Source of the DNA: Actinomycetota bacterium
GTDB taxonomy: Bacteria; Actinomycetota; UBA4738; HRBIN12
DNA length: 43,675 nt
Reading direction: 5' to 3'
Assembly (NCBI GenBank): GCA_038244455.1
Contig: JBBRTK010000003.1
Location: 1-43,675 of the forward strand
Shown here: in pieces, positions 13,465-39,616 of the stretch
Layout of the letters: every line of letters begins with the position of its first letter
Position numbering within the stretch: position 1 is the first letter of the stretch
Notes under the pieces: model-generated
Told to the model about the DNA's origin: nothing
Databases searched by the model: none
What the model saw: the letters and a program-made list of their open reading frames with translations, nothing else
Position numbers and translations under genes: made by a program

Positions 13465-13507
13465 GGCGGTCAGTCTGGCAGGTGCCCGCCGCGGGGGCAG
13501 AGCGAGC

Positions 13508-15912: not shown

Positions 15913-15955
15913 GCCGCGGCGACGCGCTGATCGGCGTCCCAGGACGCACCGCGGC

Positions 15956-16369: not shown

Positions 16370-16467
16370 GGCGATCACTCCTTCGACCGGATGACACCAG
16401 CGTCCCAGAGATGGCCGACAGGTGCCCACATGCCGTGGCTCGGCCGCGCTGCGGCTAGGCTGGGTGG

Positions 16468-17607: not shown

Positions 17608-17610
17608 CCG

Positions 17611-18990: not shown

Positions 18991-19092
18991 CAGGGAACTC
19001 CTTCAGTCTGCCGGTACCCGAACGCCGGATAGGATGGCACAGTGTGGTCGGCCAGGTGGGGCACCTCGGGTGCTGGAGGACCCCACCGTCGT

Positions 19093-19106
19093 GGGTCTTT
19101 CGCCCC
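19093..19106. promoter_or_regulatory. DosR/DevR-type binding box
   Basis: GGGTC-TTTC-GCCCC fits the GGG(A/C/T)C-N4-GNCCC core. It is centred ~42.5 bp upstream of the ATG at 19142, which follows a CACACT -10-like hexamer (19129-19134). Confidence 0.6.
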
Positions 19107-19141
19107 TCGGAGAGCCAAGGGGAAGGTTCACACTCAAGATG

Positions 19142-19669: not shown

Positions 19670-20337
19670 CCAAGACCCCGCCCTTGCGCGTCATGCTCGT
19701 TGATGATCACGAGATCGTTCGCGACGGCATCAGGGCCATGCTCGACGCCGAGGACGACATCGTTGTGACCTCAGAGGCCGGGACCGTGCGCGAGGCCATC
19801 GATGAAGCGCATCGAACCAAACCGGATGTCGTGGTCATGGACGTGCGACTGTCCGACGGCAGCGGCATCGAGGCGACCCGCGAGATCAGGGCGATGCATC
19901 CGGCCACAAAGGTCCTGATGCTCACGAGCTTCGCCGACGACGAGGCGCTGTTCGCCTCGATCATGGCCGGCGCGTCCGGCTACGTGTTGAAGCAGGTCAA
20001 GTCCGGTGATCTGCTGCGTGCCATCCGATCGGTGGGCGCGGGGGATTCGCTACTGGACCCGAGCGTGACCACGGCCGTTCTGGATCGGCTCCGAAGGGGC
20101 AAGCACCTCATGAAGGACGAGAAGCTCGCCCGCCTTTCACCGCAGGAGGAACGCATCCTCACCCAGATCGCCGACGGGAAGACGAACCGGGAGATCGGGG
20201 AGGACCTCAAGCTCGCCGAGAAGACCGTCAAGAACTACGTCAGCTCGATCCTGTCCAAACTGGAGGTGGCGCGGCGGGCCGAAGCCGCCGCGTACCTGGC
20301 CAGACACACCACCACCCCCGGCACCGTCCCCGAGTAG
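19666..20337 (+). CDS. NarL/LuxR-family response regulator, DosR/DevR-like
   Basis: LVDDHEIVR, VMDVRL, MLTSFADDEALFASIMAGASGYVLK, GKTNREIG...LAEKTVKNYVSSILSKL. Confidence 0.92.
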   Translation: MTKTPPLRVMLVDDHEIVRDGIRAMLDAEDDIVVTSEAGTVREAIDEAHRTKPDVVVMDVRLSDGSGIEATREIRAMHPATKVLMLTSFADDEALFASIMAGASGYVLKQVKSGDLLRAIRSVGAGDSLLDPSVTTAVLDRLRRGKHLMKDEKLARLSPQEERILTQIADGKTNREIGEDLKLAEKTVKNYVSSILSKLEVARRAEAAAYLARHTTTPGTVPE

Positions 20338-25186: not shown

Positions 25187-27469
25187 CTAGATCAGCGTCG
25201 CGATGCTCCGGCGCCGGCTGACCTTCGAGATCTGCACCGCCACCGGGAACTGGTCCTTCACCTGTTCGGCGTGAGTGACCACGAAGAGCTGATGGAAGCG
25301 CGCGGAGAGTCGCCCCATCGCCAGGACCATCAGGTCCTTGCGCTCTTGGTCCAGCGATCCCAGCACCTCGTCCAGCACCAGCATGCCGACATCGGCGCCG
25401 GACACGCGAGACAGGTGCATCGAGATGGCTACGCGGAGCGCCAGGTTCGCCAGATCGGTTTCCGAACCGCTGAAGCGATCGATGTCGTAGTAGGTGTCGC
25501 CGTCGGCGATATGGATGCTCAATGTCTCGTCGTCGATCTTCAGGTCGTCGTACTCGTGGTTCGTGAGCTCGCGGAAGAGCGACTCGGCCTCACGGGAGAG
25601 CTCCGGCCCGACCCGGCCCACCAGGTGATCGCGGAATCCGTCAAGGAGCGTGGCGACGCGGTCACGGTAACGAGCCTCGGAGCGGAGTTCGTCGGCCCGT
25701 GTCGCGGTCTTCTGAGCCTCCTCCAGCGCGCCGTGAAGTCTGGCCAGGTCGGCCTCGGTCCGGGCCCGCAGATCGGTGGCGGCTCGCTCGGCCTCGCGCG
25801 CGGCCGCGAGTGCCGAATCCGCGTTCGCGCGCGCATCGCGCAGGGCGGCGTACACGACGGGGTCGTGGGCGAGGGCAGCAAGCGCCGCCGCTGCGGCGGA
25901 CGTTTCGGCAGCGATCTCTGACGTTCGTTCCTCCGCGGTGGTCAGGTCGGCGGTCAGCTGGTCACGATGCTCGGCCTGTTGGGCCAGGCGCGCCGACTCG
26001 GCGCCGAGCGTTCGTTCGCGTTCGACGCGTTCGGTGAGTTCGGCCGGATCGGGCACTGCGCCGTCGAAGGGTGCGGCGAGCGCGGTCAGCGCGGCGCTGA
26101 GGTCGTCCAGGCGCGTCTGGGCGGCGGCCCGGTCGCGCGCGGCCCGCTCAGCCGTCTGCCCCGCCGTCGCCGCCGTCTTCAGCGCCGCTTCGGCCTTGCC
26201 CAGCGCAGCGCTCGCCGCCTTCTCCGCCCGGGCGGCGGCTGCGGCCTTCGCAGTGGCTTCGGCGGCCTCCTGTTTGCGATGGGCGAGGTATCCGGTGAAG
26301 TCCTTGCCCAGCTCCCGTCCGCACGTGGGGCACGGCTCGGTGGGGTCGGCCTCCTTCGCGCGGGCGAGCCGGTCGGCGGCGCTCGCGGCCAGCTCCGCTA
26401 GCTGTTCGGCGGTGGCGGCGGCGCGGGCGGCTTGCGCGCGGGCATCGTCGGCCGCCGCGGTTGCCACTTCGAGCGCCGCGAGGGACTCCTGGGGATCCGA
26501 GACGGGGAGATCGGCCAGCTGACGCTCGACCACCGCGAGCTCCTCCGCCTTCGTGCGGTAGTTGCGCGCGGCCTGCAACAGCTCCCCGGCGCCGGCGAGC
26601 GAAGCCAGCTCGGCCTGGAGGGCCGGAAGGTGGGCCACCGCATCCGTGGTGACCTCGAGGCGGAGGATGACCTCGGCCTGGTGCGCCTGGAGACGGGTCA
26701 GCTCCCTGCCCAGCCCGTCCAGGCGCACGGTCAAGGTTTCCGCCTGCTGGCGCGCCGCGTCGGCGGCTTCGAACGCTGCCGCGGCGGCCGCGCGGGCCTC
26801 GGTCGCGATCTTGAGCCCGGCGGCCGCGGCCGTGGCGTTCCCAGCGGCCTCGGCGGCAAGGTCCTTCGCCTCCTTGATGTCTGCCTTGAGCTGACTCATG
26901 TCGGCGGCCACCCCCGCCAGCTGGTCGGCCTGCCTGCGCGCCTCGATCCCGTCCTTGCGGGCAACCTTGCGCGCGTCGTCCACCGGCCGGATCCCCAGGA
27001 GCCGAAGGACCATCTCCTTGCGCTTGCCCGCCGTCACGTCGGAGAACGCGTCCAGCTGCTTTTGTTCGGCGAACACGCTTGCGCGGAAGACCTGTCGATC
27101 CATCCGGAGCAGCCGCGCGATCTCGGCGTCCACGTCGCTCACGCCCGACGCCAACTGCAACGAACCCACGAGCAGCTCGGCGTCGGTGGCATGGTTCTTC
27201 CCTTTGATCGAACGCCGGACCTCGTAGGTACTGCCGCCGTGTTCGAAGATCATCCGGAGTTCGCAATCCGCAAGGAGCCCGTTCGTTCGGATCTGGTCCT
27301 TCTTCGTGCGGGCCGCGTCGATGCCGTAGAGCGAGACGGCGATGGCCTCCATCAGCGTCGACTTCCCCGAACCGTTCGGCCCCACGACGCCGATAACCCT
27401 GGCCGGCAGCTCCAGGTCCAGCTCCTCGAACTGCCGGTAGTTCCGCAGGCTGAGCTCGACGACCCTCAC
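25187..27469 (-). CDS. rad50: Rad50/SbcC-family SMC-like ATPase (760 aa)
   Basis: LRNYRQF, Walker A GPNGSGKS, Q-loop FAEQK, CPTCG zinc hook at residue ~380 (the midpoint), signature FSGSE, Walker B/D-loop LVLDEVLGSLD, VVTH; GTGA overlap with mre11. Confidence 0.9.
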   Translation of the reverse strand: MRVVELSLRNYRQFEELDLELPARVIGVVGPNGSGKSTLMEAIAVSLYGIDAARTKKDQIRTNGLLADCELRMIFEHGGSTYEVRRSIKGKNHATDAELLVGSLQLASGVSDVDAEIARLLRMDRQVFRASVFAEQKQLDAFSDVTAGKRKEMVLRLLGIRPVDDARKVARKDGIEARRQADQLAGVAADMSQLKADIKEAKDLAAEAAGNATAAAAGLKIATEARAAAAAAFEAADAARQQAETLTVRLDGLGRELTRLQAHQAEVILRLEVTTDAVAHLPALQAELASLAGAGELLQAARNYRTKAEELAVVERQLADLPVSDPQESLAALEVATAAADDARAQAARAAATAEQLAELAASAADRLARAKEADPTEPCPTCGRELGKDFTGYLAHRKQEAAEATAKAAAAARAEKAASAALGKAEAALKTAATAGQTAERAARDRAAAQTRLDDLSAALTALAAPFDGAVPDPAELTERVERERTLGAESARLAQQAEHRDQLTADLTTAEERTSEIAAETSAAAAALAALAHDPVVYAALRDARANADSALAAAREAERAATDLRARTEADLARLHGALEEAQKTATRADELRSEARYRDRVATLLDGFRDHLVGRVGPELSREAESLFRELTNHEYDDLKIDDETLSIHIADGDTYYDIDRFSGSETDLANLALRVAISMHLSRVSGADVGMLVLDEVLGSLDQERKDLMVLAMGRLSARFHQLFVVTHAEQVKDQFPVAVQISKVSRRRSIATLI

Positions 27470-28605
27470 ACGGTCTCCCCCTGCGCGGACTCCAGGTAGC
27501 GTGCGCCGAGATCGACAACACGATCGCGTTCCAGCCCCGAGAGGTCCTGGGTGGCAACGAACGTCGACCATTCGCTCGACAGCGAACCGATCTGGGGCGC
27601 CCCCTGGACGGCGTAGGACTCGGCACCGACGTCTGGCTCGATCTGGACGTGGAGCGCGCCGGGGACCGCCTCCTGGAACTCTTCGTTCCGCACCTGCCGG
27701 AAGGCTGCGGAGTCCACGTGCTCCAGGAAGACCCGGACCACCGAACCCTCGGGCGACCCCTTCGCGGCTCGTTCGACCGCATCGACCAGCTCACCGGGAC
27801 CTAGGCCCGAGGACTCCACGCTGAGCGTCACCAGCGGGCGCTCGCCGGGGTTCTCGATCTGCTCCACCGTGCCGGCGTCCGTGTCGATGATGACGAGCCC
27901 CTTGGGGCCCGCATCCGCCGGCTTGTCGGCGAACGAGAACGAGTCCGTGGAACCGGCGTACCAGGTTCGCTTCGATGCCTTCTGGAACACGTGGTAGTGC
28001 CCCAGCACCACCAGATCGAACCGCTTGTCGAACGCCCCCTCCTCGATCTCCAGCTCGTTGATGTCGCGCCCGTAGGCACTGACCGGCAGTGATGTGAGCG
28101 CCACGTGAGCGATGAGGAGATCGGTCGCATCCCCGCCCGCCGCCCCGGCCGCCACCTCCAGCTCGGCCCGGAACTCGTCCACGCCCAGGGTTTGCGGAAC
28201 GGCGTGCACCTTCACCCCCGCCAGCTCGGCGCTCCGCGCCTGCATCGACCACGCGAACTCCACGTTGGAGAAGACCTCCTCGAGCGCGGCGTAGGGCGAA
28301 CCCGTCCCCCGCACGCGCGGGGTGTCGTGGTTCCCGCTGATGCTCACGCCGCGCAGGCCCGCCGCGTTCAGGTTCTTCAGCCCCACGAGCACCTTCCCGA
28401 ACGTGCGATAGGTCGGCCGCGCGTGATCGAAGATGTCCCCGAGCCAGATGAACCCGTCGGGCTCCTGCGCGATGGTCTCCTGCACCGCCCAGGCGAAGGA
28501 CCGCAGGAAGTCCTCCTCGCGCGTGTTCCGGCCCTGTTCGTCCCGCAGGTGTGCCAGGTGCGTCCGCCCCAGGTGGGCGTCGCCGAGGGCGACCAGGCGC
28601 GCCAC
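27466..28605 (-). CDS. mre11: Mre11/SbcD-family metallophosphoesterase nuclease
   Basis: Motifs GDAHLG, GDIFD, SGNHD, LIAH, LGHYH, WYAGS; directly upstream of the Rad50-like gene. Confidence 0.9.
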   Translation of the reverse strand: MARLVALGDAHLGRTHLAHLRDEQGRNTREEDFLRSFAWAVQETIAQEPDGFIWLGDIFDHARPTYRTFGKVLVGLKNLNAAGLRGVSISGNHDTPRVRGTGSPYAALEEVFSNVEFAWSMQARSAELAGVKVHAVPQTLGVDEFRAELEVAAGAAGGDATDLLIAHVALTSLPVSAYGRDINELEIEEGAFDKRFDLVVLGHYHVFQKASKRTWYAGSTDSFSFADKPADAGPKGLVIIDTDAGTVEQIENPGERPLVTLSVESSGLGPGELVDAVERAAKGSPEGSVVRVFLEHVDSAAFRQVRNEEFQEAVPGALHVQIEPDVGAESYAVQGAPQIGSLSSEWSTFVATQDLSGLERDRVVDLGARYLESAQGETV

Positions 28606-30173
28606 TACTCGGCGAACCCCTTCGATCGTCCTTCGGGGACGGGCGGCAGCGGCGAGGGCCCCTTCACCGTCTTCAGGTGATCCTCGTAGAGATAGACCTG
28701 CGCCGGCAGCGCGAACGGCGCCTCCAGGTTCGTGATGATGGCCTCCCCGGGCATCAGCGTCTGGATCTCGGGCCCCAGGTCGGAGATGTCCTGCTTGGAG
28801 GATCCCCGCAGGATGTTGCGGTCCTTCTCATCGGCCAGCCCCAGGATGAAGAACGTGTTGAACTGGCTCAGGAGTTCGTCGTCGATGAGCTTGGGCTGCT
28901 GGCTGACCGCGCAGAGCCCGACCTTGAACTTCCGGCCCTCGCGGGCGACGCGGGGGAACACGTTCTCGTCCCCGCGTTGCACCCTGGACAGCACGCGCTG
29001 GGCCTCCTCGAGCGCGATCAGCGTTGGCGGCAGCGCTGCGAACGCCGCGCGGTCCTCCAGGAAGATCTGCCCGTAGGTGTCCAAGACCCGCCGGGTGATC
29101 ACCGAAGCCACGAGGATCTCCTCCATCGAGGAGAGCCCGCTGGTGTCCACCAGCACGGAGAGCCCGTTCATGAGTTCGTCGACGATGCGCGCGGACAGCG
29201 AGGGCTGGGACGGATCGCGGCTGATGCACGGCATGTCCAATATCCGCTGCGCGCGGCGTTGGATGACCTGCAACGTGCTGGAGGCAACGCCCAGCTCCTC
29301 GGCGAACTTCGGCACGTCGTCCTCCTCGCCCACGCGCGAGATCCATTCGTCGCCGTAGAAGCGGATGAGGCGATAGATCGCGTCCTCCTGCGCGTGGCTC
29401 CACTGATACGCGGTCTGCAGGTCCCCCAGCGTGAGCTCACCCAGGGAAAGCCGGAGCCCGGTGGCACCGGCGCCCGCCGCGCGCGTCGCGTAGACCTTCA
29501 GCCGGTCGGCCGCCCACGGATGGTCGCGCAGCCCCTTGCGAAGTCCGCTCCCCCCTTCCAGGTACTCCCCGTGCGGATCGAACAACAGACAGGCGTACCG
29601 GCCCGAGGAGGCCAGGACCTGCCCGGCGAGCACCTTCATGAGGTTGGACTTGCCCATGCCGGTGGTGGCGAAGACACCGACGTGACTGACCAGGGTCTCT
29701 CCCTTGATCCCCACCTCCAGATCGATCACGTCCTCACCGGAGCGGAGCTTGCCGATCCGGATATCCCCCATCTGTTCGGCCAGGAACGCGAAATCCTCCG
29801 GGCCGGGCGCCGTCACGCGCGCGAACTGCGCCGGAAGCGATTTCGGCTTACGGAACGCACCCGAGGTCCCGTCGATGTAGCCGAGCGGCTGACACTTCGC
29901 GACCTTGTACAGGCGCTGCTCAGGATCGTACAGCTCATACGGCGACTCGGCCCGGTCACCCGCCATGTAGGCGCCGGCGGTTCGTTCGGCCCAGGCGGGA
30001 TCGCTCGAATCCGACCCGTACGTCACGTCGATCGCCCGGAACAGGAAGCGGCGACCCCGCTCGGCGTCCTCCGCCACCAGCAGCTCGCCCAGGAACAGAT
30101 CCGTGCCGTAGTAGGCGCGGAACTGTGCTTCCAGCACGCTCTTGCCGAAGATCCGGCCTTTGTCCACGCTCAT
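28605..30173 (-). CDS. herA: HerA-family ATPase/helicase (HAS barrel + DUF87)
   Basis: N-terminal beta-barrel-like segment; HVGVFATTGMGKS Walker A, FDPHGEY, Walker B IALEEAQ, AREGRKFKVGLCAVSQQP, SQFNT. Confidence 0.88.
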   Translation of the reverse strand: MSVDKGRIFGKSVLEAQFRAYYGTDLFLGELLVAEDAERGRRFLFRAIDVTYGSDSSDPAWAERTAGAYMAGDRAESPYELYDPEQRLYKVAKCQPLGYIDGTSGAFRKPKSLPAQFARVTAPGPEDFAFLAEQMGDIRIGKLRSGEDVIDLEVGIKGETLVSHVGVFATTGMGKSNLMKVLAGQVLASSGRYACLLFDPHGEYLEGGSGLRKGLRDHPWAADRLKVYATRAAGAGATGLRLSLGELTLGDLQTAYQWSHAQEDAIYRLIRFYGDEWISRVGEEDDVPKFAEELGVASSTLQVIQRRAQRILDMPCISRDPSQPSLSARIVDELMNGLSVLVDTSGLSSMEEILVASVITRRVLDTYGQIFLEDRAAFAALPPTLIALEEAQRVLSRVQRGDENVFPRVAREGRKFKVGLCAVSQQPKLIDDELLSQFNTFFILGLADEKDRNILRGSSKQDISDLGPEIQTLMPGEAIITNLEAPFALPAQVYLYEDHLKTVKGPSPLPPVPEGRSKGFAE

Positions 30174-30175
30174 GG

Positions 30176-31252
30176 TCAGCTCCGATTCAAGATCTCGTGG
30201 AAGTCCTGGAACAGGACCTCGATGTCATCCTCGTGCATGCCTTCGCGCGTGAGCGCTTCGCGGAACGCGCGGCGCACATCCGCCACCGCGTAGCCGGTGA
30301 CGCGCGCAGCCTGATGGGCCCGCGCCAGCGGGTACGGATACCCGACGAACGCAGGATCCCCGGCGAGCCCCGCCAACCGGGAAAGGACCTCGCCGGGCTC
30401 CCCCGGCCCGCGCGCGATGTCCACACGGAACGCGTGCGCGGCGGTGGGCGCCAGGTGCGCGATGAAGATCTCCCCGACGTAGAGCCGGCCGAACACGGGA
30501 TCGGTGGAGATCCGGGCGGCCCAGCGGGAAGGCCCGACCTCGCGGTCGGCGCGGCGTTTGAGCAACGTGACCAACGGCGCGTTGCGTCCCCAGAACAGGG
30601 TGGAGGCCTTCACCACGCCAGCCAGGTGGACGCCGCGGGCCACCGCCGTCTCATGTGCCCGCCGCACCACCTCCGGGGGCACCAAGGGCCCCCCGTGCAA
30701 CGAGCCGTCGACCAGGACCAGGTCGCCGGACGCAGCCTCGTCGATGGTTCGGATGGTGGCCTTCCATTCCGCCCATCCCCGCAGCGCGTCGACCGGACGG
30801 GTTAGTTCCGGTAGCTGTCCGGGTTCTTCGCCGGTGAGTTCGCGCAGCGCCTCGCGCGCCAGGTCCGCAACCTCGTGCCGGGACACCGCCCGGATCTCGA
30901 GGGCGGGCGATTCGACCAGGTCGGTGGCGCCGCCCGCGAATCGCACCCTGGCCACCCGGAAAGCCGCCACCTGGAAGGAGCGAGCGTCGGCCACCAGGCA
31001 CGAACCGCCGTCCACCGCCCACACGACGCCGGGGTCTTCGACGGGCACCGGCTCGATACCGAACGCGTCCGGGTGGCCCGGGACCACCACGTCTTCTCCC
31101 AGTTCGAGCTGCCCGTCCACGATCCGGATGTCGCCTCCGGGGTCGCGCAACAGGTCCACCACGAAGGCTGCAGCCTGATTCAGCTGATCCCCGCGAACCC
31201 GGTCGGCGCCGACCAGACGGTCGGCCTCCACGGGGTCCAGCGCGCTCGACAT
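30176..31252 (-). CDS. nurA: NurA-family 5'-3' nuclease
   Basis: VWAVDGGS, LVLVDGSL, GVVKAST and GYPYPLARAH motifs; immediately upstream of herA. Confidence 0.85.
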   Translation of the reverse strand: MSSALDPVEADRLVGADRVRGDQLNQAAAFVVDLLRDPGGDIRIVDGQLELGEDVVVPGHPDAFGIEPVPVEDPGVVWAVDGGSCLVADARSFQVAAFRVARVRFAGGATDLVESPALEIRAVSRHEVADLAREALRELTGEEPGQLPELTRPVDALRGWAEWKATIRTIDEAASGDLVLVDGSLHGGPLVPPEVVRRAHETAVARGVHLAGVVKASTLFWGRNAPLVTLLKRRADREVGPSRWAARISTDPVFGRLYVGEIFIAHLAPTAAHAFRVDIARGPGEPGEVLSRLAGLAGDPAFVGYPYPLARAHQAARVTGYAVADVRRAFREALTREGMHEDDIEVLFQDFHEILNRS

Positions 31253-31258
31253 GGGCGA

Positions 31259-31280
31259 AGGATACCCACCCTCGCCGACG
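31259..31280 (-). promoter_or_regulatory. PafBC/RecA-NDp-type promoter for a leaderless nurA operon
   Basis: Minus strand reads CGTCGG-cgagggtggg(N10)-TATCCT-6 nt-ATG, versus consensus TGTCGG-N10-TANNNT (one mismatch). Confidence 0.6.
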
Positions 31281-31308
31281 TGATCCCAAGGCCATGAGCC
31301 GTTCGGAC

Positions 31309-31344
31309 CAGTCCCTCTTGACTAGAAGCAGTCCCCAGGGACTG
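31309..31344. repeat. CAGTCCC direct repeat plus inverted repeat CAGTCCC-CA-GGGACTG
   Basis: CAGTCCC at 31309-31315 and 31329-31335; its reverse complement GGGACTG at 31338-31344. Confidence 0.55.
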
Positions 31345-31370
31345 AAGGTTCGGCGGGTAGATGCCGATAG
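31343..31370 (+). promoter_or_regulatory. sigma28 (FliA/WhiG)-like promoter
   Basis: TGAA-N16-GCCGATAG versus consensus TAAA-N15/16-GCCGATAA, 47 nt before the RBS-preceded ATG at 31418. Confidence 0.5.
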
Positions 31371-31417
31371 GCAGGGGATAGAACGGGATCAGCGGTCAAG
31401 GACAAGAGGGGGATCTC

Positions 31418-34400
31418 ATGAGCCGGCCGAGGAACGCTTCACGCATCGCGCGCGTACCGTTGTTCGCGCTGGTCGTGCTGCTCGCCGGCGGCTCGATCGG
31501 TTCGATCGTGATGGCCGGCCGCGCTCGCGCCCACGCACAAGAGGCGATGGTCACCCAGGCCCGATCCGCCGTTGAGAACACGCTGTCCAGCATCTTCAGC
31601 GACAACGACCTGAGGACCATGTCCTCGCCCACGCGCGCCGCCACGCTGAACACCGAACTCTCCGTGGCGCTGGGCGCAACAGCCGTCTCCGACGTGACCC
31701 TCTACAGCTCGATGGGCGCGATCTTGTACGACATCCAGAACTCACGCATCGGCAACAAGCTCCTGGGCGAGCGGCTCGCGATCAAAACCGCCACCCACGG
31801 CGGCGCGGTCCCGACAATCGTCGGCACCGACCTCACCGTGATGCTCCCGATCCAGCGGTTCGGCACCCTGGGCGCGGTCATGCTGACGATGCCGCAGGCG
31901 CCGATCGATGCTGCGGGCCGCCCATGGACGGCGGCCGGGCTGATCATGGCGCTCTGCATCCTGCCGGCGCTGTTCATGCTGTGGTGGGTCGGACGCATCG
32001 CGGCCGCCTCGGGCGCGAACATCAGCTTCCGCCTCCAGCAGATGACCTCGGCTCCCTCGCGCCGGGAACAGACGCGTCCGTCCCCTGCCCCGGCGATGCA
32101 GCATGGGTTGAAGGAGGAAGGCGACGCGCGGAGGATGTCAGAGGAACGCGCCCGGGCCGCAGAGGAGCGCTTGAGCGTGCTCCAGGAGCAGTACCGCAAG
32201 ACCCTTGCCGACCTGCATGCCTCGAAGGAAACGCCACCACCGGCAACGGGGAGCAAGGCGCTCGAGGAACGCGCGCTCCAGGCCGAGGGGAAGCTCCGCC
32301 TCTTGGAGGGGCAGCTTCGCGCGGTCAGCGACGAACGCGACAAGATGGAGGAAGAGCTCCGCCTCACTCCCGCCGCCGCACCCGGAGAACCCGACCCGCG
32401 ACTGAAGACGGAGTACGAACGGATGGAAACCGAACTGGTCGGCGTTCGAGCGGAGCTGGAGGGAACGCAGACCGAACTCTCAGCCGCCAACCGAGAGCTC
32501 ACCGACCTGCTCTCCACGGTGGGCCGCGCTGAAGGGGACAAGGCCGACCGGATCCGCGACCTCGAGCAGGACCTGGATGCGGCACATGTGCAGATCCTGA
32601 CCACCCAGGAAGCGCTCGAGGCGGCGCGCGCCGAAGCCGACCAGGTCCAAGGACGAGCGGGGTCGGCGCAGACCGAGCTGGGATCGTTGCGTGAGGCCCA
32701 CGACCAGGCTGTCCGAGACAGGGACGCCGCCATCCTCTCCTCCCGCGAAGAGTCAGAGAGCCTGCACCGCGAACTGGATGCGCTGAGCGCGAGCGCCGGG
32801 GGAGAAACCGAAGCGGTTCGCGCACAAGCCGCGGAGGCCCGAGCGGCGCTCACGGCCCAAACCGAACGCATCCGGGAACTGCAGCAGCAGCTGGATGCCG
32901 CGCGGTCGGAGATCCTTCGCGCCGAGGAGACGGGCAACGCCGCCGGCGCGCACGCGGAAACCACCCGCACCGAGCTCGAGGCAACCCGCAAAGAGCTGCG
33001 CGCCCTGCGGAACGAAGAGCAGCGCGCGGCGATGCTGGAGGACGAGCTGCGCGCCACCCGCGCCGAGCTCGAGAACACCCAGGCTTCTCAATTGGCCGAA
33101 CTCGCGGAGCGAGACGCGGATCTCGAGGGCCGGGTTCGCCGGACCCGAGAGGAGTTCCAGGCCGTGATCGGTGAGAGGGACGTGCAGTTCGCCGCCAGCC
33201 AGAACGAACTCGGGTCGGCCCGGTCCGAACTGGGCCAGATCCGTATGGAGGCCTCCGCTGCGGCGAACGAGGCCCAAGCCCAGACCGCGCGCGCCGATGA
33301 TCTGGCCGGGCAAGCCGAGCGAGCCGAACGCGAGCTCCACGCGCAGCAGACCGTAGTCCGCAAGACCGCCGCCGACCTCCAGGAGGCCGTGGAAGCCAAC
33401 GCGGACCTGGCGCGCAAGCTCCAGGATCTGGAGAACCGCCGTCAGCTCGAGCTCGCCGACGAAGAGGGTCATCTGAAGATGGACCAGATCCTCTACGCCA
33501 CGCAGGAGCGCCTGGCCGGACAGACCGAACGGCTCATCGAGACGGAGGAACGCGCCCACGAAGCGGAGCGCTCGGTGGAGATCCTGAACGAGCGTCTGGA
33601 CGAGACGCTGTCGCAGCTGCGCGCCCTGCAGATGGCCGATGCGCTCCGCGACCTGCGGGGCGAGGAGCACGCCCAGCACGAGGCAGCCGCGGAGGCAGGC
33701 GCCATTGAGGATGAGGTGGTCCGACTCGAAGACCGCCGAGCGTCCTCGCCCTTCCTGAAGGAACTCACGCTGGATGCAAGGAAGTCGCTCACGCAGATCC
33801 TGGGGATCACGCAGATCCTGAAGTTCAAGAAGGATGCGAAGGACCAGGCGCAGCTGGTGAAGCAGCTCACGGCCTATGCGCGGCGCCTGGACCTGACCGT
33901 GAGCGATCTGGCCGACGCCGACAAGCTTGCACGCGGTTCGGTCGAACTCACGGTTCGCCGGACAGACCTGGAAGCCTTGGTCCAGCGCGTCGTCGAGGAA
34001 TCCGACGTGAGCGCGGACCACGACGTCCGCGTGGTCACGGAATCGGTGGTGTGCGGGGTGGATCAGCTGCGCACGGAGCAGGCGCTCGCCGGGCTCCTGC
34101 GTTCGAGCGCGGATCGCACACCCCAGGGAAAGTCCATCCTGGTCACGCTTCAGCAGGTCGAAGGTGGCGCGCTGATCTCCGTCGGCGACCCGGAGCCGTC
34201 CTCGGACGGCTCGCTGTCGCCGGTGGTCAGGCGATTCGCAGAGATCCAGGGCGGATGGGCCAAGGTGGATACGCGCGAGGACGGAACCGGTTCGATGTTC
34301 CGGATCTTCCTCCCCGACGGTGGGAGCAACAGCGCCGGGGCCGACCTTCGGATCGTCGTCAACGACGCCGGCCAAGGCGACTCGGAGGATGCCCCCTGGA

Positions 34401-34459
34401 ACGATGACGATCAGGACATGTTGGTCCGGGAGATCGGCCGTCTGGCGGAGCCGAGCTAG
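31418..34459 (+). CDS. Membrane-anchored long coiled-coil protein with degenerate histidine kinase (HisKA/HATPase) C-terminus
   Basis: Two TM helices flank a ~140-aa extracytoplasmic domain; ~550 aa of E/A/R/L/Q-rich heptads; C-terminal FLKELTLDARKSLTQILG...TDLEALVQRVVEE...EQALAGLLRSSADRTP...ISVGD...QGGWAKV...GSMFRIFLP. Confidence 0.8.
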   Translation: MSRPRNASRIARVPLFALVVLLAGGSIGSIVMAGRARAHAQEAMVTQARSAVENTLSSIFSDNDLRTMSSPTRAATLNTELSVALGATAVSDVTLYSSMGAILYDIQNSRIGNKLLGERLAIKTATHGGAVPTIVGTDLTVMLPIQRFGTLGAVMLTMPQAPIDAAGRPWTAAGLIMALCILPALFMLWWVGRIAAASGANISFRLQQMTSAPSRREQTRPSPAPAMQHGLKEEGDARRMSEERARAAEERLSVLQEQYRKTLADLHASKETPPPATGSKALEERALQAEGKLRLLEGQLRAVSDERDKMEEELRLTPAAAPGEPDPRLKTEYERMETELVGVRAELEGTQTELSAANRELTDLLSTVGRAEGDKADRIRDLEQDLDAAHVQILTTQEALEAARAEADQVQGRAGSAQTELGSLREAHDQAVRDRDAAILSSREESESLHRELDALSASAGGETEAVRAQAAEARAALTAQTERIRELQQQLDAARSEILRAEETGNAAGAHAETTRTELEATRKELRALRNEEQRAAMLEDELRATRAELENTQASQLAELAERDADLEGRVRRTREEFQAVIGERDVQFAASQNELGSARSELGQIRMEASAAANEAQAQTARADDLAGQAERAERELHAQQTVVRKTAADLQEAVEANADLARKLQDLENRRQLELADEEGHLKMDQILYATQERLAGQTERLIETEERAHEAERSVEILNERLDETLSQLRALQMADALRDLRGEEHAQHEAAAEAGAIEDEVVRLEDRRASSPFLKELTLDARKSLTQILGITQILKFKKDAKDQAQLVKQLTAYARRLDLTVSDLADADKLARGSVELTVRRTDLEALVQRVVEESDVSADHDVRVVTESVVCGVDQLRTEQALAGLLRSSADRTPQGKSILVTLQQVEGGALISVGDPEPSSDGSLSPVVRRFAEIQGGWAKVDTREDGTGSMFRIFLPDGGSNSAGADLRIVVNDAGQGDSEDAPWNDDDQDMLVREIGRLAEPS

Positions 34460-34462: not shown

Positions 34463-35629
34463 CTACCCCAGGGACTTCAGCAGCTCACGGGCGATGACCA
34501 ACCGCTGGATCTGGTTCGTGCCCTCATAGATCTGCGTGATCTTCGCGTCGCGCATGTAACGCTCGGCCGGATACTCGCGCATGTAGCCGTTGCCGCCCAG
34601 GACCTGCACGGCGTCGGTGGTGACCGCCATCGCGTTATCTGAGGCGACGCATTTGGCGACCGACGCATGGAACGTCGTGCGCGGATCGCCAGCATCGCAC
34701 GCTGCCAGCGCCCGGTAGGTGAGCACCCGCGCCGCCTCCACCTTCATCGCCATATCCGCCAGCAGGAACGAGACCCCTTCGAACTCCATCAGCTTCTTGC
34801 CGAACTGGGAACGTTCGTTCGCGTAGGCCAGGGCCAGGTCCAGCGCTCCCTGGGCGATCCCCACCGCCTGGGCGGCGATAGCCGGACGGGAATAGTCCAG
34901 GGTCCGCATGGCGATAGCGAACCCGCCGCCCTCCTGGCCGATGAGTCGATCGGCCGGGATGCGGACATCCGCCAGCACGACCTCCCGTGTAGGCGAGCCG
35001 TGGATCCCCATCTTGTGTTCGGCCGGGCCGAAGCTCACGCCGAGGTCCTCACGCCCGACCAGGAAGGCGCTGATCCCTTTGGTGCGCAGGGTCGGGTCGC
35101 TGGTTGCGAACACGACGTAGGTGTGGCTCACGCCCGCACCGGTGATGAAGCGCTTCGTCCCGTTGAGGGTGAAGATCCCGGCGTCGTCGCGCACGTATCG
35201 CGTGGCGAGCGCGCCGGCGTCCGAGCCGGCATCGGGTTCGGTCAGGGCATAGGACATCAGCAGCTCGCCGCGCGCGATGGCCGACGTATGCGTTCGTCGC
35301 TGCTCATCGGTGCCCGCCACCATCAGCGGGACCACGCCGAGCTTGCTCACGATCGGCGTGAGCGCGACACCTGCTGAGACCCTCGACAGCTCCTCGATGA
35401 ACACCCCGAACGCCAACTGACCGCCGCCCGAACCGCCGTCCTCCTCGGGATAGCCCACGCCCATGAGGTCGTTGTCCACCAGCACTCGGTAGACATCCTC
35501 GGGCCATTCGTCCAGGGCATCGATCTCCGCGGCGCGCGGCGCGATCTTCGCCGCGAACAGCGCCCTGATGACCGAACGGAACTCCTCGAGTTCTTCCGGG
35601 AGTTCGTAGGGACGATCCAGCGCGGACAC
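34463..35629 (-). CDS. Acyl-CoA dehydrogenase (short-chain/butyryl-CoA type)
   Basis: YALTEPDAGSD, NGTKRFIT, KMGIHGS, QVLGGNGY, RDAKITQIYEGTNQIQR. Confidence 0.92.
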   Translation of the reverse strand: MSALDRPYELPEELEEFRSVIRALFAAKIAPRAAEIDALDEWPEDVYRVLVDNDLMGVGYPEEDGGSGGGQLAFGVFIEELSRVSAGVALTPIVSKLGVVPLMVAGTDEQRRTHTSAIARGELLMSYALTEPDAGSDAGALATRYVRDDAGIFTLNGTKRFITGAGVSHTYVVFATSDPTLRTKGISAFLVGREDLGVSFGPAEHKMGIHGSPTREVVLADVRIPADRLIGQEGGGFAIAMRTLDYSRPAIAAQAVGIAQGALDLALAYANERSQFGKKLMEFEGVSFLLADMAMKVEAARVLTYRALAACDAGDPRTTFHASVAKCVASDNAMAVTTDAVQVLGGNGYMREYPAERYMRDAKITQIYEGTNQIQRLVIARELLKSLG

Positions 35630-35634: not shown

Positions 35635-36819
35635 TCAGCTCACGGCCCGAAGGATCAAGGCGTCGCCCTGCCCGCCGCCGCCGCAGATGGCGGCGGCCCC
35701 GAACTCGATGCCGCGCCGGCGTTGCTCCATCGCCAGGGTGAGAACGATCCGCGCGCCGCTGGCACCGATCGGATGCCCGAGCGCCACCGCGCCGCCGTTC
35801 ACGTTCACGATGTCTTCCGGGACGCCGAGCATCCGCGCGGAGTGGATCGGCACCGCGGCGAATGCCTCGTTGATCTCCAAGAGCCCTAGGTCCCCGGCAG
35901 CCAGCCCGCCGCGCTTCAGCGCTCGCTCGGTGGCGATCCCCGGAACCGTGTGAAGCGAGGCGTACCGGTCGGCGCTCATGCCGTAGGCGACGATCTCGGC
36001 CAGCGGCTCGAGCCCCAGCTCCCGGGCTTTCGTCTGGCTCATGACCACCACTGCGGCCCCGCCGTCGCTGATCTGCGAGGCGTTCCCGGCGGTCACGGTT
36101 CCTCCCGGGGTGAACGCGGGTTCCAGCCGCGCGAGCCCTTCAACCGTGGTGTCGGCGCGGATCCCCTCGTCCCGGCTGAACGCGACCGGCTCCCCTTTGC
36201 GCTGGGGAACCTGCACCGCGACGACCTCCTGGCCCATGCGGTCGGACTCCCAGGCTGCCTGCGCACGCTGGTGCGATCGCTCGGACCACGCGTCCTGCGC
36301 CTCGCGGCTCACCCCCAGCTCGGCGCTGATCTGGTCGGTCCCCTGGCCCATGTGCCGGTCGTCGAACGCGCACCAGAGCCCGTCGTGGATCATCGAATCC
36401 AGCATCTCCGCGTTCCCCAGGCGGCTTCCCTGCCGGGCCTTCGGGATGACGTAGGGCGCGTTGGTCATGGACTCCATCCCACCCGCGACCACGACGTCCA
36501 GGTCCCCGGCGCGGATCATCTGATCGGCCAGGGCGATGGCAGCCAGCCCGGAGGGACACACCTTGTTCACCGTGAGGGCGGGGACCTCCTTCGGGATGCC
36601 GGCGGCCACGGCGGCCTGCCGGGCTGTGATCTGACCCTGCCCGGCCTGCAGGACGTGACCCATGATCGTGTACTCGACCTGCTCGGGGGCGACGCCGGCA
36701 CGGATCAGCGCCTCTCGGATGGCCGCCGCTCCCAGATCGACCGCGCGCAGGGGCGCCAACCCGCCGTTGAACTTCCCGATGGGCGTCCGCGCACCCGCCA
36801 CGATCACCGAACGCGTCAT
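35635..36819 (-). CDS. Acetyl-CoA C-acetyltransferase (thiolase)
   Basis: ARTPIGK, NKVCPSG, GGMESM, NASQISDG, EINEAF, GHPIGASG, AICGGGG; start 7 nt after TAGACT. Confidence 0.93.
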   Translation of the reverse strand: MTRSVIVAGARTPIGKFNGGLAPLRAVDLGAAAIREALIRAGVAPEQVEYTIMGHVLQAGQGQITARQAAVAAGIPKEVPALTVNKVCPSGLAAIALADQMIRAGDLDVVVAGGMESMTNAPYVIPKARQGSRLGNAEMLDSMIHDGLWCAFDDRHMGQGTDQISAELGVSREAQDAWSERSHQRAQAAWESDRMGQEVVAVQVPQRKGEPVAFSRDEGIRADTTVEGLARLEPAFTPGGTVTAGNASQISDGGAAVVVMSQTKARELGLEPLAEIVAYGMSADRYASLHTVPGIATERALKRGGLAAGDLGLLEINEAFAAVPIHSARMLGVPEDIVNVNGGAVALGHPIGASGARIVLTLAMEQRRRGIEFGAAAICGGGGQGDALILRAVS

Positions 36820-36858
36820 GCCGATGAGTCTATCCCGGGCGGCCACCGAGCCCACGAT

Positions 36859-38706
36859 TCAGTTGCGGTTGGCGAGCGTCTTCTCGACGACCTCGAGGAT
36901 CTCGTCGCGGACCAGCTCGTCGCGCTGAACCAGCGCGGTGCGAAGCGCGGTGTGGACGTCGCGGTTCTCTTCCAGCACGGCCCGCACACGCTCCTTCTGC
37001 GCCACCAGGATGTCTTCGACCCGGGCCTTGCCCTCGCTGTCACCGAGCACACGGGCCACCAGGTTCTTGCCGCCCAGCGGGCCTTCGTTCATGGCATCGA
37101 AGCTGATGAGCGAACCCGCCATGCCGAACGAACCAACCATGCGCGCGGCCAGGTCGGTCGCGTGCGCCAGGTCGTTGGCCGGCCCCGTGCCGGATTCACC
37201 GAAGACCATCTCCTCGGCCACCAGCCCGCCGAGCGCGATCGCGATGCCCGCCTCGATCTCAGTCTTGGTCTGCGTGAAGCGCTCCTCTTCTTCGCTGTGC
37301 GCGAGCAGCCCGAGCGAACCGCGGCGCTTGATGATGGACAGCACCTCCAGCCGGCGACCCTTGCCCAGGATGTAGGCGACGGTGGCGTGCCCCGCCTCGT
37401 GCGTTGCCACCGAGTCGCGGTCCGCATCCGTGTAGACCACGGGCTGCTTCGTCCCGATCTCCTCGGTGAACTTGGCTTCCATGACGTCGTCGTTGTTCAT
37501 CTCGCGGCGGCCGTTTCGCAGCGCCACCAGGAGCGCCTCGTCGAAGAGGTGCTCGATCATGACGGGCGTGTACCCGAAGGTTTCGAAGGCGAGGTGTTCA
37601 CGGGCCTCGTCCGCGTCCAGCAGCTGATGATGGGACTTGCGGGCCAGGAAGAAGTCGATCAGGTCGCGGCGTTCGGCCTTCGTGGGGACATCGAAGTAGA
37701 GGCGGCGGTCGAACCGGCCGGGGCGCAGCAGCGCCGGGTCCAGCGAGTCGGCCCGGTTGGTGGCCGCGATGAGCAGGATGTTCGAGTACGGCGGCTTCAT
37801 GGCGGCCAAACGACGGTGCGCGGGTAGGTAGCCGTTGACCCAGCCGATGAACTTCCCCTTGATCCGATCGCCCGCAGCCGGCTGGTCGAAGGACTGCATC
37901 TGGATCAGGAGTTCGTTCACCATCGCGCCCGAATCCCCGCCGCCCATGTGGGAGACGGAGCGAGCGAGTCCCTCGGACACGGGGGTCGAGTTCACGGAGG
38001 AACGCGCCATGGCGATGGCGTCGATCTCCTCGATGAACCCGATGGCGCCGCCTTCCTTGCGGGCGGCCTTGCGCAGGGCCTTGTAGAACGAACGGATCCG
38101 GTGCGCGCTCATCCCCTGCCAATGCGAGGTCATGGACGGCGCCGAGATGAACAGGAACGGCACTCCCGCTTCCTTGGCCATGGCCTTAGCCAGGAACGTC
38201 TTTCCCGTCCCCGGTGGTCCCTCGAACAAGATGCCGCGCCGCGGCGTCCCGCCGAGTTCGGCGCGGAAGGTCGCATGTCCCAAGAACACGTCCAACGAAC
38301 GAACGACCTCGTCGACCTGACTGTCCAGGCCCTTCATGTCGGTAAGGCCGACCTCCACCTGTTCGGGATAGACGACCAGGTGGGGCGAACGCCCGCTCAT
38401 CAGCGGTCCGAGGACCATGACCAGGATCGCGAGCCCGATGATGATGGCCGGGACCATGATGACGGCGTTGTCACCCATCGTCGGCAACTTGAACGGCTGA
38501 TGGCTGACGTAGCGGTAGGCGAGGAAGGCGTCGGCGAGGATGAACAACGTGGCTGCGTGCCACACCTTCTTCACGCGCGTGCGCTCGCGCTGGCGGAACA
38601 CGTCCGCGCGGCCTTGCTGCATCAATGAAGAACCACTCAGGATGTCCGCGGCGGTGGGTGCGGCGCCGATGGCCGAAGCCACTGCTGCCGGTTCCTTCTG
38701 GATCAC
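36859..38706 (-). CDS. FtsH-like membrane AAA+ zinc metalloprotease (divergent paralogue)
   Basis: Two TM helices, Walker A GPPGTGKT, Walker B FIEEID, SRH ATNRADSLDPALLRPGRFDR, HEAGH, GLVAEE, ANDL; GAGGAG RBS before the GTG at 38706. Confidence 0.85.
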   Translation of the reverse strand: MIQKEPAAVASAIGAAPTAADILSGSSLMQQGRADVFRQRERTRVKKVWHAATLFILADAFLAYRYVSHQPFKLPTMGDNAVIMVPAIIIGLAILVMVLGPLMSGRSPHLVVYPEQVEVGLTDMKGLDSQVDEVVRSLDVFLGHATFRAELGGTPRRGILFEGPPGTGKTFLAKAMAKEAGVPFLFISAPSMTSHWQGMSAHRIRSFYKALRKAARKEGGAIGFIEEIDAIAMARSSVNSTPVSEGLARSVSHMGGGDSGAMVNELLIQMQSFDQPAAGDRIKGKFIGWVNGYLPAHRRLAAMKPPYSNILLIAATNRADSLDPALLRPGRFDRRLYFDVPTKAERRDLIDFFLARKSHHQLLDADEAREHLAFETFGYTPVMIEHLFDEALLVALRNGRREMNNDDVMEAKFTEEIGTKQPVVYTDADRDSVATHEAGHATVAYILGKGRRLEVLSIIKRRGSLGLLAHSEEEERFTQTKTEIEAGIAIALGGLVAEEMVFGESGTGPANDLAHATDLAARMVGSFGMAGSLISFDAMNEGPLGGKNLVARVLGDSEGKARVEDILVAQKERVRAVLEENRDVHTALRTALVQRDELVRDEILEVVEKTLANRN

Positions 38707-38843
38707 GCAAGGCTCCTCAGCCGCCAGGCGCCAGGGGGTTGCGCCGAGGCAGCCAAAGGTACACCGGCCGGCCTCCCCCGGATACCGGCCGTTCGGCCCA
38801 AACACCGGGCCCGAAGGGTGGCCCGGCCGCTACGCTGCACGCT

Positions 38844-39203
38844 ATGGCAAGGAAGAAGCTTCCCCCGGTCAGCGAACACGACCGCCAGGTGGTCGGAGGC
38901 CTGCTCCGGGACCTTCGGAGGTTCTCCGGCTACCGATCCGTCGAAACCGCCTCCAACACGGCGAGCTGCCCGGCCTCACGCCAGTCCATCTACACCTACG
39001 AACGAGGCGAGCAACTCCCCTCCCTCCGCCAGTTCCTGGAGTTGGTCGAGTTCTACGTCCTGGAGGCCCCGGCCAAGGCGGCCCGGCCAGCCACGGACCT
39101 GCGGGCCCACGGCGTGGCCTCCGTGGTCCGCGCCCTCGAACTCCCCGCCTACCATCTCCCGCACGCCCGCGACCTCATCGCCCGCATGCAAACCGAGGAC
39201 TAA
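38844..39203 (+). CDS. XRE-family helix-turn-helix protein
   Basis: GLLRDLRR...SRQSIYTYERGEQLPSLRQFLELVEFY; TACGCT -10 7 nt before the ATG. Confidence 0.75.
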   Translation: MARKKLPPVSEHDRQVVGGLLRDLRRFSGYRSVETASNTASCPASRQSIYTYERGEQLPSLRQFLELVEFYVLEAPAKAARPATDLRAHGVASVVRALELPAYHLPHARDLIARMQTED

Positions 39204-39205
39204 CC

Positions 39206-39616
39206 GTGCCCATCTCCCTCACCGACATCGACCACATCGGCATCGCGGTGGACGACCTCGAAGCATCCGTCGCCCTCTACCAGCGCCTCCTGGGAACGCC
39301 GCCGGCCCACCGCGAACGCGTCGAAGACCAAGGCGTCGAAGAAGTGCTGTTCGCGGCGGGATCCAGCTACATCCAGTTGCTCGGCGCCCTAGGCCCGGAC
39401 ACGCCCGTGGGACGATCCTTGGCCGCGCGCGGCCCGGGTCTGCACCACATCGCCTACCGAGTGGCCGACATCGAAGCCGCCCTGGACCACTTCCGCACCG
39501 AAGGCGCCCGCCTCATCGACGACACCCCCCGCCCGGGCAGCCGCAACACCCGCATCGCCTTCATCCACCCAGGCTCCATGAACGGCGTCCTGGTCGAACT
39601 GGTCCAAGAGAGCTGA
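39206..39616 (+). CDS. mce: Methylmalonyl-/ethylmalonyl-CoA epimerase (VOC fold)
   Basis: IDHIGIAV, QGVEE, IQLL, GPGLHHIAYRVADI, LIDDTPRPGS...IAFIHP...GVLVELVQ. Confidence 0.9.
   Translation: MPISLTDIDHIGIAVDDLEASVALYQRLLGTPPAHRERVEDQGVEEVLFAAGSSYIQLLGALGPDTPVGRSLAARGPGLHHIAYRVADIEAALDHFRTEGARLIDDTPRPGSRNTRIAFIHPGSMNGVLVELVQES

Follow-up and report, generated by a model that had tools for sequence, protein, structure and literature searches.

What is left for a protein to do when it keeps a sensor histidine kinase's whole framework and has lost the residues with which such a kinase works? The question is raised by one gene (31418-34459, forward strand) of an Actinomycetota bacterium. It lies in a stretch of 43,675 nucleotides (contig JBBRTK010000003.1, assembly GCA_038244455.1), referred to below as the window. 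The product begins with a membrane-spanning sensor module, continues as a long helical stalk and ends with a kinase-shaped head. In an original prediction, made from the letters of the DNA, it was regarded as a sensor kinase repurposed as a tether. The answer favoured here is that it acts as a non-catalytic docking or tether protein, for which the odds are put at roughly three in four.

The kinase-shaped head

The C-terminus models as a DHp hairpin followed by a HATPase-type CA domain, the fold that had been read from the letters. For residues 734-1013 (40-row alignment) AlphaFold2 gave a predicted local distance difference test score (pLDDT) of 85.8 and a predicted template-modelling score (pTM) of 0.71, and between about residue 773 and residue 968 the pLDDT exceeds 90. 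In the model the DHp is a pair of long helices and the CA domain an alpha/beta fold with five strands; an acidic stretch of low confidence and a last helix, at about 996-1010, come after them. The best solved matches returned by Foldseek were HK853 (4jav, 5.7e-14) and DivL (4q20_B, 6.4e-14, template-modelling score TMt 0.60), and RetS (6dk7, 7n0e) was matched near 1e-10. When PDB sequences were searched with phmmer, residues 772-968 were aligned with HK853 (4jas_A, E value 1.6e-5) and RetS (1.4e-4). A homodimer predicted from two copies of residues 734-1013 reached a median score of 0.29 against a mark of 0.42, a value that is uninformative on binding either way.

The alignment to HK853 shows what the fold has lost. 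The H-box S-H-E-L-R-T-P-L of HK853 is here T-L785-D-A-R-K789-S-L, so that the acceptor His and the phosphatase Thr are both gone; the D/ExxT/N phosphatase motif is replaced by D786-A-R-K789, with Lys789 at the T/N position. The N-box N-L-L-N-N-G reads G892-L-L-R-S896-S and has lost both Asn, Ser896 standing at the Mg-binding position. G1 (D-N-G-I-G) has become D924-P-E-P-S without its glycines, and G2, GxGxG in kinases, reads S-L-S-P-V. Between G1 and G2 there are 10 residues, compared with about 35 in HK853, which means that the ATP lid has been deleted. Leu in place of His, an N-box without Asn, a decayed G1 and a missing lid had all been claimed in the original prediction, and each claim holds. 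Since the acceptor His, the Thr or Asn of the D/ExxT/N motif, the Mg-binding Asn, the glycines of G1 and G2 and the lid are absent, the residues for autophosphorylation and for phosphatase action are missing. Neither HisKA (PF00512) nor HATPase_c (PF02518) was matched by Pfam even at E<=1, and a few relatives score near or below the cut-offs of these two families; the NCBIfam CreC model matches the head at 1.5e-10, with 40.6 bits against a cut-off of 356. Of the marks of a functional HisKA kinase only the fold is therefore present, while the His, the Asn, G1, G2 and the lid, the Pfam gathering scores and the phosphatase motif are all lacking.

The same state is found throughout the family. A word-indexed search with residues 760-1013 returned 258 proteins at E<=0.001 among 8,000 scored candidates; the best 120 of these 258 are 55-100% identical to the query over the head, and most are 900-1,270 amino acids long, with a few shorter fragments. 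All relatives listed come from metagenomes or from metagenome-assembled genomes (MAGs) of Actinomycetota, most of them under the label hypothetical. When 1.84 billion representatives were searched exhaustively with HMMER, 49 clusters lay at E<=1e-30; weaker matches were mostly ordinary kinases, aligned in two stretches because they carry the lid. In the ESM Atlas the nearest clusters are unnamed hypothetical proteins of Actinomycetota, followed by ordinary kinases. An alignment of the family has 121 rows, P0001 and P0002 both being the query. A lid of 10 residues is present in 121/121 of them, and likewise in 69/69 species-representative loci. Position 785 is occupied by Leu in 62 rows, Thr in 13, His in 11, Ser in 10, Val in nine, Phe in six, Met in three, Arg, Ala and Ile in two each and Asn in one. 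Among the species representatives (65 rows with the column) the counts are L43, V6, M6, H2, T2 and I2 with four singletons. Position 896 shows A45, S26, T16, F16, N8, G7 and one each of Ile, Val and Leu, and position 789 shows K106, H10 and R5. His785 and Asn896 occur together in none of the 121 rows, and the 11 rows which keep His785 all lack the Asn, the G boxes and the lid. By contrast with these variable catalytic positions the rest of the head is nearly frozen: D786, R895, D924 and P935 are invariant, and the ratio of nonsynonymous to synonymous substitution rates (dN/dS; Nei-Gojobori, against three congeners) is 0.03-0.055 in the DHp and 0.03-0.05 in the CA domain. The head (0.03-0.055) is the most constrained part of the protein, the whole protein giving 0.12-0.17 and the tail 0.22-0.41. 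The degenerate state is family-wide and no local decay; the orthologues keep it under strong purifying selection, which is how the check proposed in the original prediction came out. A kept fold, loss of the His and/or of the ATP-binding motifs, and purifying selection are marks of bacterial histidine pseudokinases such as DivL and PsmA, and the present protein shows all of them. Neither Pfam nor NCBIfam, scanned with the whole protein, holds a family of its own for it, and no description of this pseudo-kinase family was found in a full-text literature search. A distant group (P0165, P0167, P0169, P0170 and P0172; 33-35% identity to the head) is also without His and lid, reads ALS(L/M/V)(D/N)(A/V)KRS(L/I)S and VE(D/G)G, includes some members with two transmembrane segments and a stalk, and may be a sister pseudo-kinase family.

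The gene itself is sound. Its open reading frame (ORF) of 1013 codons and a stop is intact, and a strong ribosome-binding site, AAGAGGGGGA at 31404-31413, lies four bases 5' of the ATG at 31418. The G+C fractions at the three codon positions (GC1/2/3) are 0.74/0.47/0.84 and resemble those of the neighbouring genes. Contigs of an independent sequencing run (X2) span the whole ORF with 0-1 differences per long piece and zero indels. One contig of another run (X5), of 90-95% likeness, has a 1-base deletion at 32024 which is absent from X2, and it probably reflects a related organism or an assembly error. The ORF is unbroken in 5 congeners and in dozens of other species, and with the ribosome-binding site, the GC3, the purifying selection and the X2 contigs this bears out the claim that it is intact and no obvious pseudogene. 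Of the divergent promoter region said to be shared with nurA, the 165-bp gap stands; a consensus sigma-70 scan found no promoter in it, a consensus which says little for this phylum. A terminator scan gave two antisense terminator-like sites against 1.5 expected from shuffled sequences, hence no excess.

Membrane module, linker and stalk

The N-terminal part supports the first half of the predicted layout, in which an external domain of about 140 residues lies between two transmembrane (TM) segments. Four Arg are found in the N-terminus and basic residues after TM2. Basic flanks of TM segments face the cytoplasm according to the positive-inside rule, so that both ends of the protein should be cytoplasmic and residues 35-170 should lie outside. 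AlphaFold2 modelled residues 1-240 (37-row alignment) with a pLDDT of 88.5. In this model TM1 extends into a long helix, and between it and TM2 lie first two short helices and then a sheet of five strands. With the ectodomain, Foldseek returned WalK (4ywz, TMt 0.61, the best), CitA (2j80, 0.62), DcuS, DctB and the chemoreceptors TlpQ and Tlp3, at E values of 1e-4 to 1e-3; a Pfam scan of the whole protein gave no Cache match to it. A long N-terminal helix, a five-stranded sheet and flanking helices between two TM segments are the marks of a single PDC/sCache domain, and all of them occur in the model. Residues of about 35-170 are thus predicted to form one sensor domain of the PDC/sCache type, and the order TM, PDC/sCache, TM is, on the models, a genuine and complete input module of a sensor kinase. 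Hydropathy, AlphaFold2 and Foldseek agree on this point with the original prediction.

Behind TM2 the description of a coiled coil of about 550 residues could be kept in part: a long proline-free helical stalk is present, and residues from 196 to about 330 form a partly Pro-rich linker instead. Residues 196-235 are rich in Pro, Ser and Ala (P213, P221, P223 and P225), a conserved helical block follows at 241-260, and Pro hinges lie at 273-275 and 318-327. From residue 328 to 777 there is no proline at all; the composition of this part is 18% Ala, 16% Glu, 12% Leu, 12% Arg and 7% Gln, and most windows between about 320 and 700 have their strongest hydrophobic period at 3.5-3.6 residues. The whole-protein Pfam scan returned only sub-threshold coiled-coil families, and models of the SMC and tropomyosin type were likewise matched below threshold. 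The NCBIfam SMC matches are confined to the rod (residues 467-771), where they reach 33 bits and the cut-off is 567. A coiled-coil ATPase of the SMC/Rad50 type, which would carry halves of an ABC-type ATPase head at its two ends, is ruled out, with no AAA or SMC_N domain found by Pfam and SMC matches to the rod only; some relatives carry the source label "chromosome segregation ATPase".

Across 105 full-length homologues, TM2 and the DHp are separated by 468-833 residues (median 557) and never by fewer than 468. In a profile built on 110 homologue sequences the blocks 241-260, 341-360, 521-580 and 661-720 show mean top-residue frequencies of 0.74-0.84, near the level of the head, and residues 401-520 are a lineage-specific insert found in few homologues. 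Since several of its blocks are conserved about as well as the head, the stalk is not a mere spacer. Its dN/dS is 0.13-0.23, that of the TM and ectodomain part 0.08-0.22. The helical stalk is roughly 450-530 residues long. The rise of a coiled coil is 0.148 nm per residue; by residue count the stalk would measure about 65-80 nm as one continuous coiled coil, with 450 residues giving about 67 nm. The Pro-rich linker and the hinges make a rigid allosteric coupling from ectodomain to head unlikely, and the more probable task of the ectodomain is to localise the protein or to anchor it in the envelope.

Table 1. The pseudo-kinase gene, its parts and its neighbours (positions in the window)
Feature	Position	Strand	Basis or remark
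rad50	25187-27571	-	divergent cassette
mre11	27466-28605	-	divergent cassette
herA	28605-30173	-	divergent cassette
nurA	30176-31252	-	divergent neighbour, 165 bp away
Intergenic region nurA / pseudo-kinase gene, divergent	31253-31417	.	165 bp, holds Shine-Dalgarno-like AAGAGGGGGA
Whole pseudo-kinase ORF	31418-34459	+	coding statistics, dN/dS, independent contigs
TM1 (residues ~13-34), preceded by Arg-rich cytoplasmic N-terminus	31454-31519	+	Kyte-Doolittle; AlphaFold2 helix 7-59
PDC/sCache-like (extracellular PAS) domain, residues ~35-170	31520-31927	+	AlphaFold2 pLDDT >92; Foldseek
TM2 (residues ~171-195)	31928-32002	+	hydropathy scan; AlphaFold2
Membrane-proximal cytoplasmic region, residues 196-330	32003-32407	+	proline map, conservation profile
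Pro-free helical stalk, residues ~331-770	32408-33727	+	3.5-residue periodicity, proline map, conservation profile
DHp-like helical hairpin, residues 771-850	33728-33967	+	alignment, AlphaFold2, Foldseek
Leu785 at acceptor-His position	33770-33772	+	alignment to HK853
Degenerate CA (HATPase-like) domain, residues 851-968	33968-34321	+	alignment, AlphaFold2, Foldseek
Ser896 at Mg-binding Asn position of N-box	34103-34105	+	alignment to HK853
G1 position, D924-P-E-P-S	34187-34201	+	alignment to HK853
Acidic low-confidence tail, then short conserved amphipathic helix (~996-1010)	34322-34456	+	AlphaFold2, conservation
Acyl-CoA dehydrogenase	34463-35629	-	convergent, syntenic across family
Thiolase	35635-36855	-	convergent, syntenic across family
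FtsH-like AAA+/M41 protease	36859-38805	-	convergent, constant member of syntenic block

The locus and its relatives

The gene is accompanied almost everywhere by a DNA-break-repair cassette. In the window this is the archaeal-like cassette at 25187-31252 (reverse strand), called type W. A scan of one genome per species gave 80 loci, 73 of them (L025-L097) members of the family, all from uncultured Actinomycetota MAGs with one labelled Thermoleophilaceae by its depositor; several of the scanned loci belong to the same genomes as the G-numbered related genomes named below. Directly upstream, 48 of the 73 have a co-directional cassette of a second type (A), the pseudo-kinase gene following sbcC directly; 12 have a divergent type W cassette (including the split-form L096) and five a divergent type A' cassette, about 40% identical to A. 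Two loci (L077, L078) have aconitase there and no cassette, and in six the sequence is too short to tell. The cassette is thus directly upstream in 65/67 informative loci. Type A (for example L020:1451-7831) consists of a weakly NurA-like protein of 311 amino acids (Pfam NurA E 0.002-0.014), a HerA/FtsK-like protein of 578 amino acids, SbcD and SbcC. In the co-directional form the median gap between the sbcC stop and the gene start is 130 bp (n=39), which may be an underestimate due to first-start calls that over-extend the gene. Rad50 and SbcC of the two types are 25-30% identical, and for NurA and HerA there is no tblastn match at E 1e-3; the type A and type W cassettes are non-orthologous. 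Among 41 related genomes an A-type HerA is found in 21, a W-type in 16 (including the unpublished G029), both in none and neither in four: G003 (72% complete), G005 (64%), G024 (93%) and G037 (94%). On a quick maximum-likelihood tree of 58 pseudo-kinase sequences, from which rows below 600 amino acids and 16 uninformative or out-of-family rows were excluded, 11 changes of the cassette label are needed; for A and for W alike, well-supported branches require at least 6. This one locus has thus seen repeated replacement of its cassette.

The cassette is nevertheless not the only constant neighbour. A convergent thiolase gene is present in 69/73 loci, and synteny extends over the entire region, from aconitase as far as thiolase and the FtsH-like gene. 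The adjacency to nurA, whose conservation the original prediction had proposed to check, is real and widely conserved; it is mostly a co-directional position downstream of a non-orthologous SbcC, and may be plain inherited synteny. It is striking, yet it does not demonstrate a functional link. PADLOC gave no match for the pseudo-kinase and only generic matches for the cassette proteins (HerA, and SMC-like LmuB and mad3), so that nothing marks the locus as a defence system. A full-text literature search found no membrane partner of bacterial NurA-HerA clusters described.

Within the relatives, the gene itself occurs in several states. Across the 41 genomes scanned, full-length orthologues (E<=1e-68) are found in all 5 congeners and 7 more, that is in 12/24 genomes of the GTDB family, and in 0/16 genomes of other families in the order. 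In G008, G015, G021 and G018 the same locus holds two ORFs of about 400 amino acids each: a membrane protein (TM, ectodomain, TM and coiled coil), and then a soluble kinase-like protein (coiled coil, HisKA, HATPase_c). The two-ORF loci recorded in sister genera are L105:4339-6811, L106:5345-8394, L107:6080-9172 and L110:3619-6016. G017 has the soluble gene alone and G012 has it after a 131-residue ORF with one TM segment. The soluble form exceeds the Pfam gathering scores where scanned (G018 apart). It has AVAAEVRRPLT with Ala for His, LLANAGRRT with the Asn intact, and D-D/T-G-P/T-E/D-V-P, together with a full-length lid. The two-ORF state may be due to assembly frameshifts rather than a true gene split; however, soluble forms also occur among metagenome proteins in their own right (P0168), and there is a fused form with a lid as well (P0177, 951 amino acids). 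G006, G007, G016 and G023 have the membrane gene only, and in G010 merely 140 bp separate the acyl-CoA dehydrogenase gene from nurA. Three genomes from a second family of the order (G025, G032, G038) have next to nurA a homologue of just the membrane module, and G027, G028, G030, G031, G036 and G040 yielded no homologue with these queries. The His-less, lid-containing form looks like an evolutionary intermediate. From the sequences, the His would have been lost first and the lid deleted later in the fused lineage, and the head may be dispensable in some lineages. The nearest His-containing relatives (L098-L102, P0175, P0176) were rejected as the ancestral form, as they lack the TM-PDC-TM-stalk design. 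The locus preserves a graded series, from canonical kinases at other places of these genomes through His-less forms with lid (split or fused) to lid-less fused ones, in which the steps from enzyme to scaffold can be followed.

As called from their first start codons, rad50 and mre11 overlap by 106 bases (27466-27571), and an ORF with a glyoxalase domain (38540-39616, forward strand) overlaps the 5' end of the FtsH-like gene (38540-38805); the true starts of these ORFs probably lie further downstream. With the NCBIfam FtsH model, whose cut-off is 600 bits, the FtsH-like protease reaches 283, and its AAA match is stretched over residues 192-372, which suggests an insertion. Elsewhere in the window, 2632-15148 is a cell-envelope polysaccharide cluster with genes for nucleotidyl transferases, GT2/GT4 glycosyltransferases, RmlD-like and epimerase proteins, a Wzm/Wzt-type ABC transporter and a LytR-CpsA-Psr protein. 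An unrelated signalling neighbourhood at 15061-20337 contains a GGDEF protein, a universal stress protein, a GAF-HisKA_3 kinase (16468-17607), a multicopper oxidase and a LuxR-type response regulator (19666-20337).

Possible functions and known systems

The docking or tether function proposed at the outset would work as follows. The protein is membrane-anchored, most likely a dimer, and has a complete sensor-histidine-kinase chassis (TM1 with its N-terminus inside, PDC/sCache, TM2, DHp and CA), in which TM2 and the DHp have come to be separated by a flexible linker rich in Pro and by about 450-530 residues of helical stalk. The kinase core is disabled, the residues for autophosphorylation and for dephosphorylation of a response regulator being absent. 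Like kinases, the protein would form its dimer by way of the DHp and a parallel coiled coil, and a conserved partner would be bound through the head, the tail and the stalk blocks, being placed tens of nanometres from the membrane or pulled towards it. The partner may be a response regulator or a kinase, in the manner of DivL or RetS, or may belong to the neighbouring DNA-end-processing cassette. The layout, the fold, the missing catalytic motifs, the conservation and selection across the family and the intermediates are seen in the data, and from them the dimer, the length of the stalk, function through binding and the candidate partners are inferred. The catalytic residues are gone, yet the head is the best conserved part and the stalk blocks are conserved, hence the protein must act by binding. 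A precedent is PsmA, a pseudokinase which is reported to act by binding DivIVA (PMC12963549). Of the reading as a repurposed sensor kinase, the fold, the input module and the conserved decay have thus stood, while anchoring for polarity, cytoskeleton or chromosome is conjectural.

Several points weigh against this function. The analysis turned up no partner, and no member of the family has been studied by experiment. His785 is kept in 11/121 homologues and Asn896 in 8/121, and such variants may be phosphorylated by another kinase; D924, the adenine-contacting Asp of G1, is invariant, and the head may retain some nucleotide contact. The coiled coil is predicted from periodicity, composition and absence of proline, and an antiparallel fold-back may shorten its reach. 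The gene is missing, split or cut to its membrane module in several related genera, from which it follows that the head is dispensable in some lineages.

That the protein is still an enzyme, a kinase with another acceptor residue or an ATPase, could be argued from the same D924 and from the Bergerat-type fold, which is retained overall; it is nevertheless highly improbable, as G1, G2 and the whole lid are gone in every member, few rows keep Asn896 and 11 different residues occupy the acceptor position. Hardly more credible is a gene on its way to a pseudogene by lineage-specific loss of function: the locus is indeed split, truncated or empty in some related genera, but the low dN/dS overall and in the head, the ORF intact in so many species, the coding-type GC3 and the strong ribosome-binding site all speak against decay. 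A regulator of a two-component system, in which the dead head binds a response regulator or heterodimerises with a working kinase, is a tentative possibility. Hardly any variation is seen on the DHp surface, exposed charged residues such as LKHKKDAKDQAQL included, DivL and RetS are among the closest folds, the complete input module is kept, and the mechanisms reported for DivL (PMC4211667) and for RetS with GacS (PMC8498467) are precedents. Nevertheless, no receiver-domain gene or paralogous kinase is conserved beside the gene, the only two-component genes of the window are the unrelated GAF-HisKA_3 kinase and the LuxR-type regulator 12-15 kb away, and the linker with its hinges opposes rigid transmission of a signal from TM2 to the head.

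The neighbourhood points in another direction, to a fifth, membrane-anchoring or regulatory component of the NurA-HerA-Mre11/SbcD-Rad50/SbcC machine, which would act at the membrane as a tether or a gate of break repair, perhaps in answer to an envelope cue sensed by the PDC domain. The near-constant place of the cassette directly upstream, the short distance from sbcC, an adjacency that outlasts at least 6 well-supported switches of cassette type on the quick tree, and the lone membrane-module homologue that still adjoins nurA in the second family all favour it. It remains doubtful, because the whole region is syntenic with thiolase equally constant, and the adjacency may be plain inheritance among kin that are not independent. 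The head is 55-60% identical across the non-orthologous W and A backgrounds, which is hard to square with a specific interface. Moreover, G024 has the gene and no HerA of either type, L077 and L078 have no cassette locally, and G010 has a cassette and only 140 bp at the place of the gene. The more specific picture, in which a hitherto unrecognised membrane-anchored partner of the bacterial NurA-HerA-Mre11-Rad50 proteins, a rod of about 70 nm with a dead kinase head, couples the state of the envelope, as sensed by the PDC ectodomain, to the processing of DNA ends at the nucleoid or tethers broken DNA and repair complexes to the membrane, must be called unlikely; if true, two non-orthologous repair cassettes would serve interchangeably as partners at one locus. 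The near-constant neighbourhood with two interchangeable repair cassettes gives a concrete, testable functional hypothesis for a lineage of soil and sediment Actinomycetota without a cultured model.

The docking or tether function has relatives among known systems. Kinases of the HK853/WalK type share the chassis of TM, PDC-type ectodomain, TM, DHp and CA, HK853 being the best sequence and fold match of the head and the WalK ectodomain the best sensor match; unlike them, the present protein has lost the His, the Asn, G1, G2 and the lid, and where they have a HAMP/PAS linker it has a stalk of about 500 residues. DivL of Caulobacter crescentus carries a Tyr at the His position and PAS domains, and its distribution is alphaproteobacterial. 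DivL is reported to act by binding and not by phosphotransfer. The DHp and CA fold without acceptor His is common to both proteins (4q20 is the second-best fold match, about 20% identity), whereas the PDC ectodomain, the stalk, the lack of PAS and the deleted lid set the present one apart, and an orthologue of DivL is ruled out by the absence of a PAS match in Pfam and by Leu or a variable residue at 785.

RetS of Pseudomonas aeruginosa belongs to an unrelated lineage, with a 7TMR-DISMED2 input, two receiver domains and no long stalk. It is kinase-like and is reported to act by binding the DHp of another kinase (PMC8498467). Closest in lineage is PsmA of Streptomyces venezuelae, described in PMC12963549 as an actinobacterial histidine pseudokinase and scaffold which binds DivIVA. 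According to the same paper, the residue at its His position varies between conserved flanks, its ATP motifs have decayed, the D/ExxT/N motif is lost and autokinase activity was not detected. It is there a cytoplasmic protein of the Streptomycetaceae only, built as PAS-PAS-DHp-CA with a disordered region of 696 residues and a REC domain. The variable His position in conserved flanks, the decayed ATP motifs and the lost phosphatase motif are thus shared, and the TM segments, ectodomain and coiled-coil stalk of the present protein are absent from it. With two TM segments, an ectodomain and no REC domain, the present protein is ruled out as an orthologue of PsmA. By analogy, DivL, PsmA and RetS would work in a similar way, yet their architectures are unrelated to this family. 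Histidine pseudokinases are only now being recognised as bacterial scaffolds, with DivL, and PsmA in 2026, as examples, and the present family would add a third, architecturally extreme design: a full sensor-kinase chassis with the lid excised and a stripped kinase at the end of a stalk.

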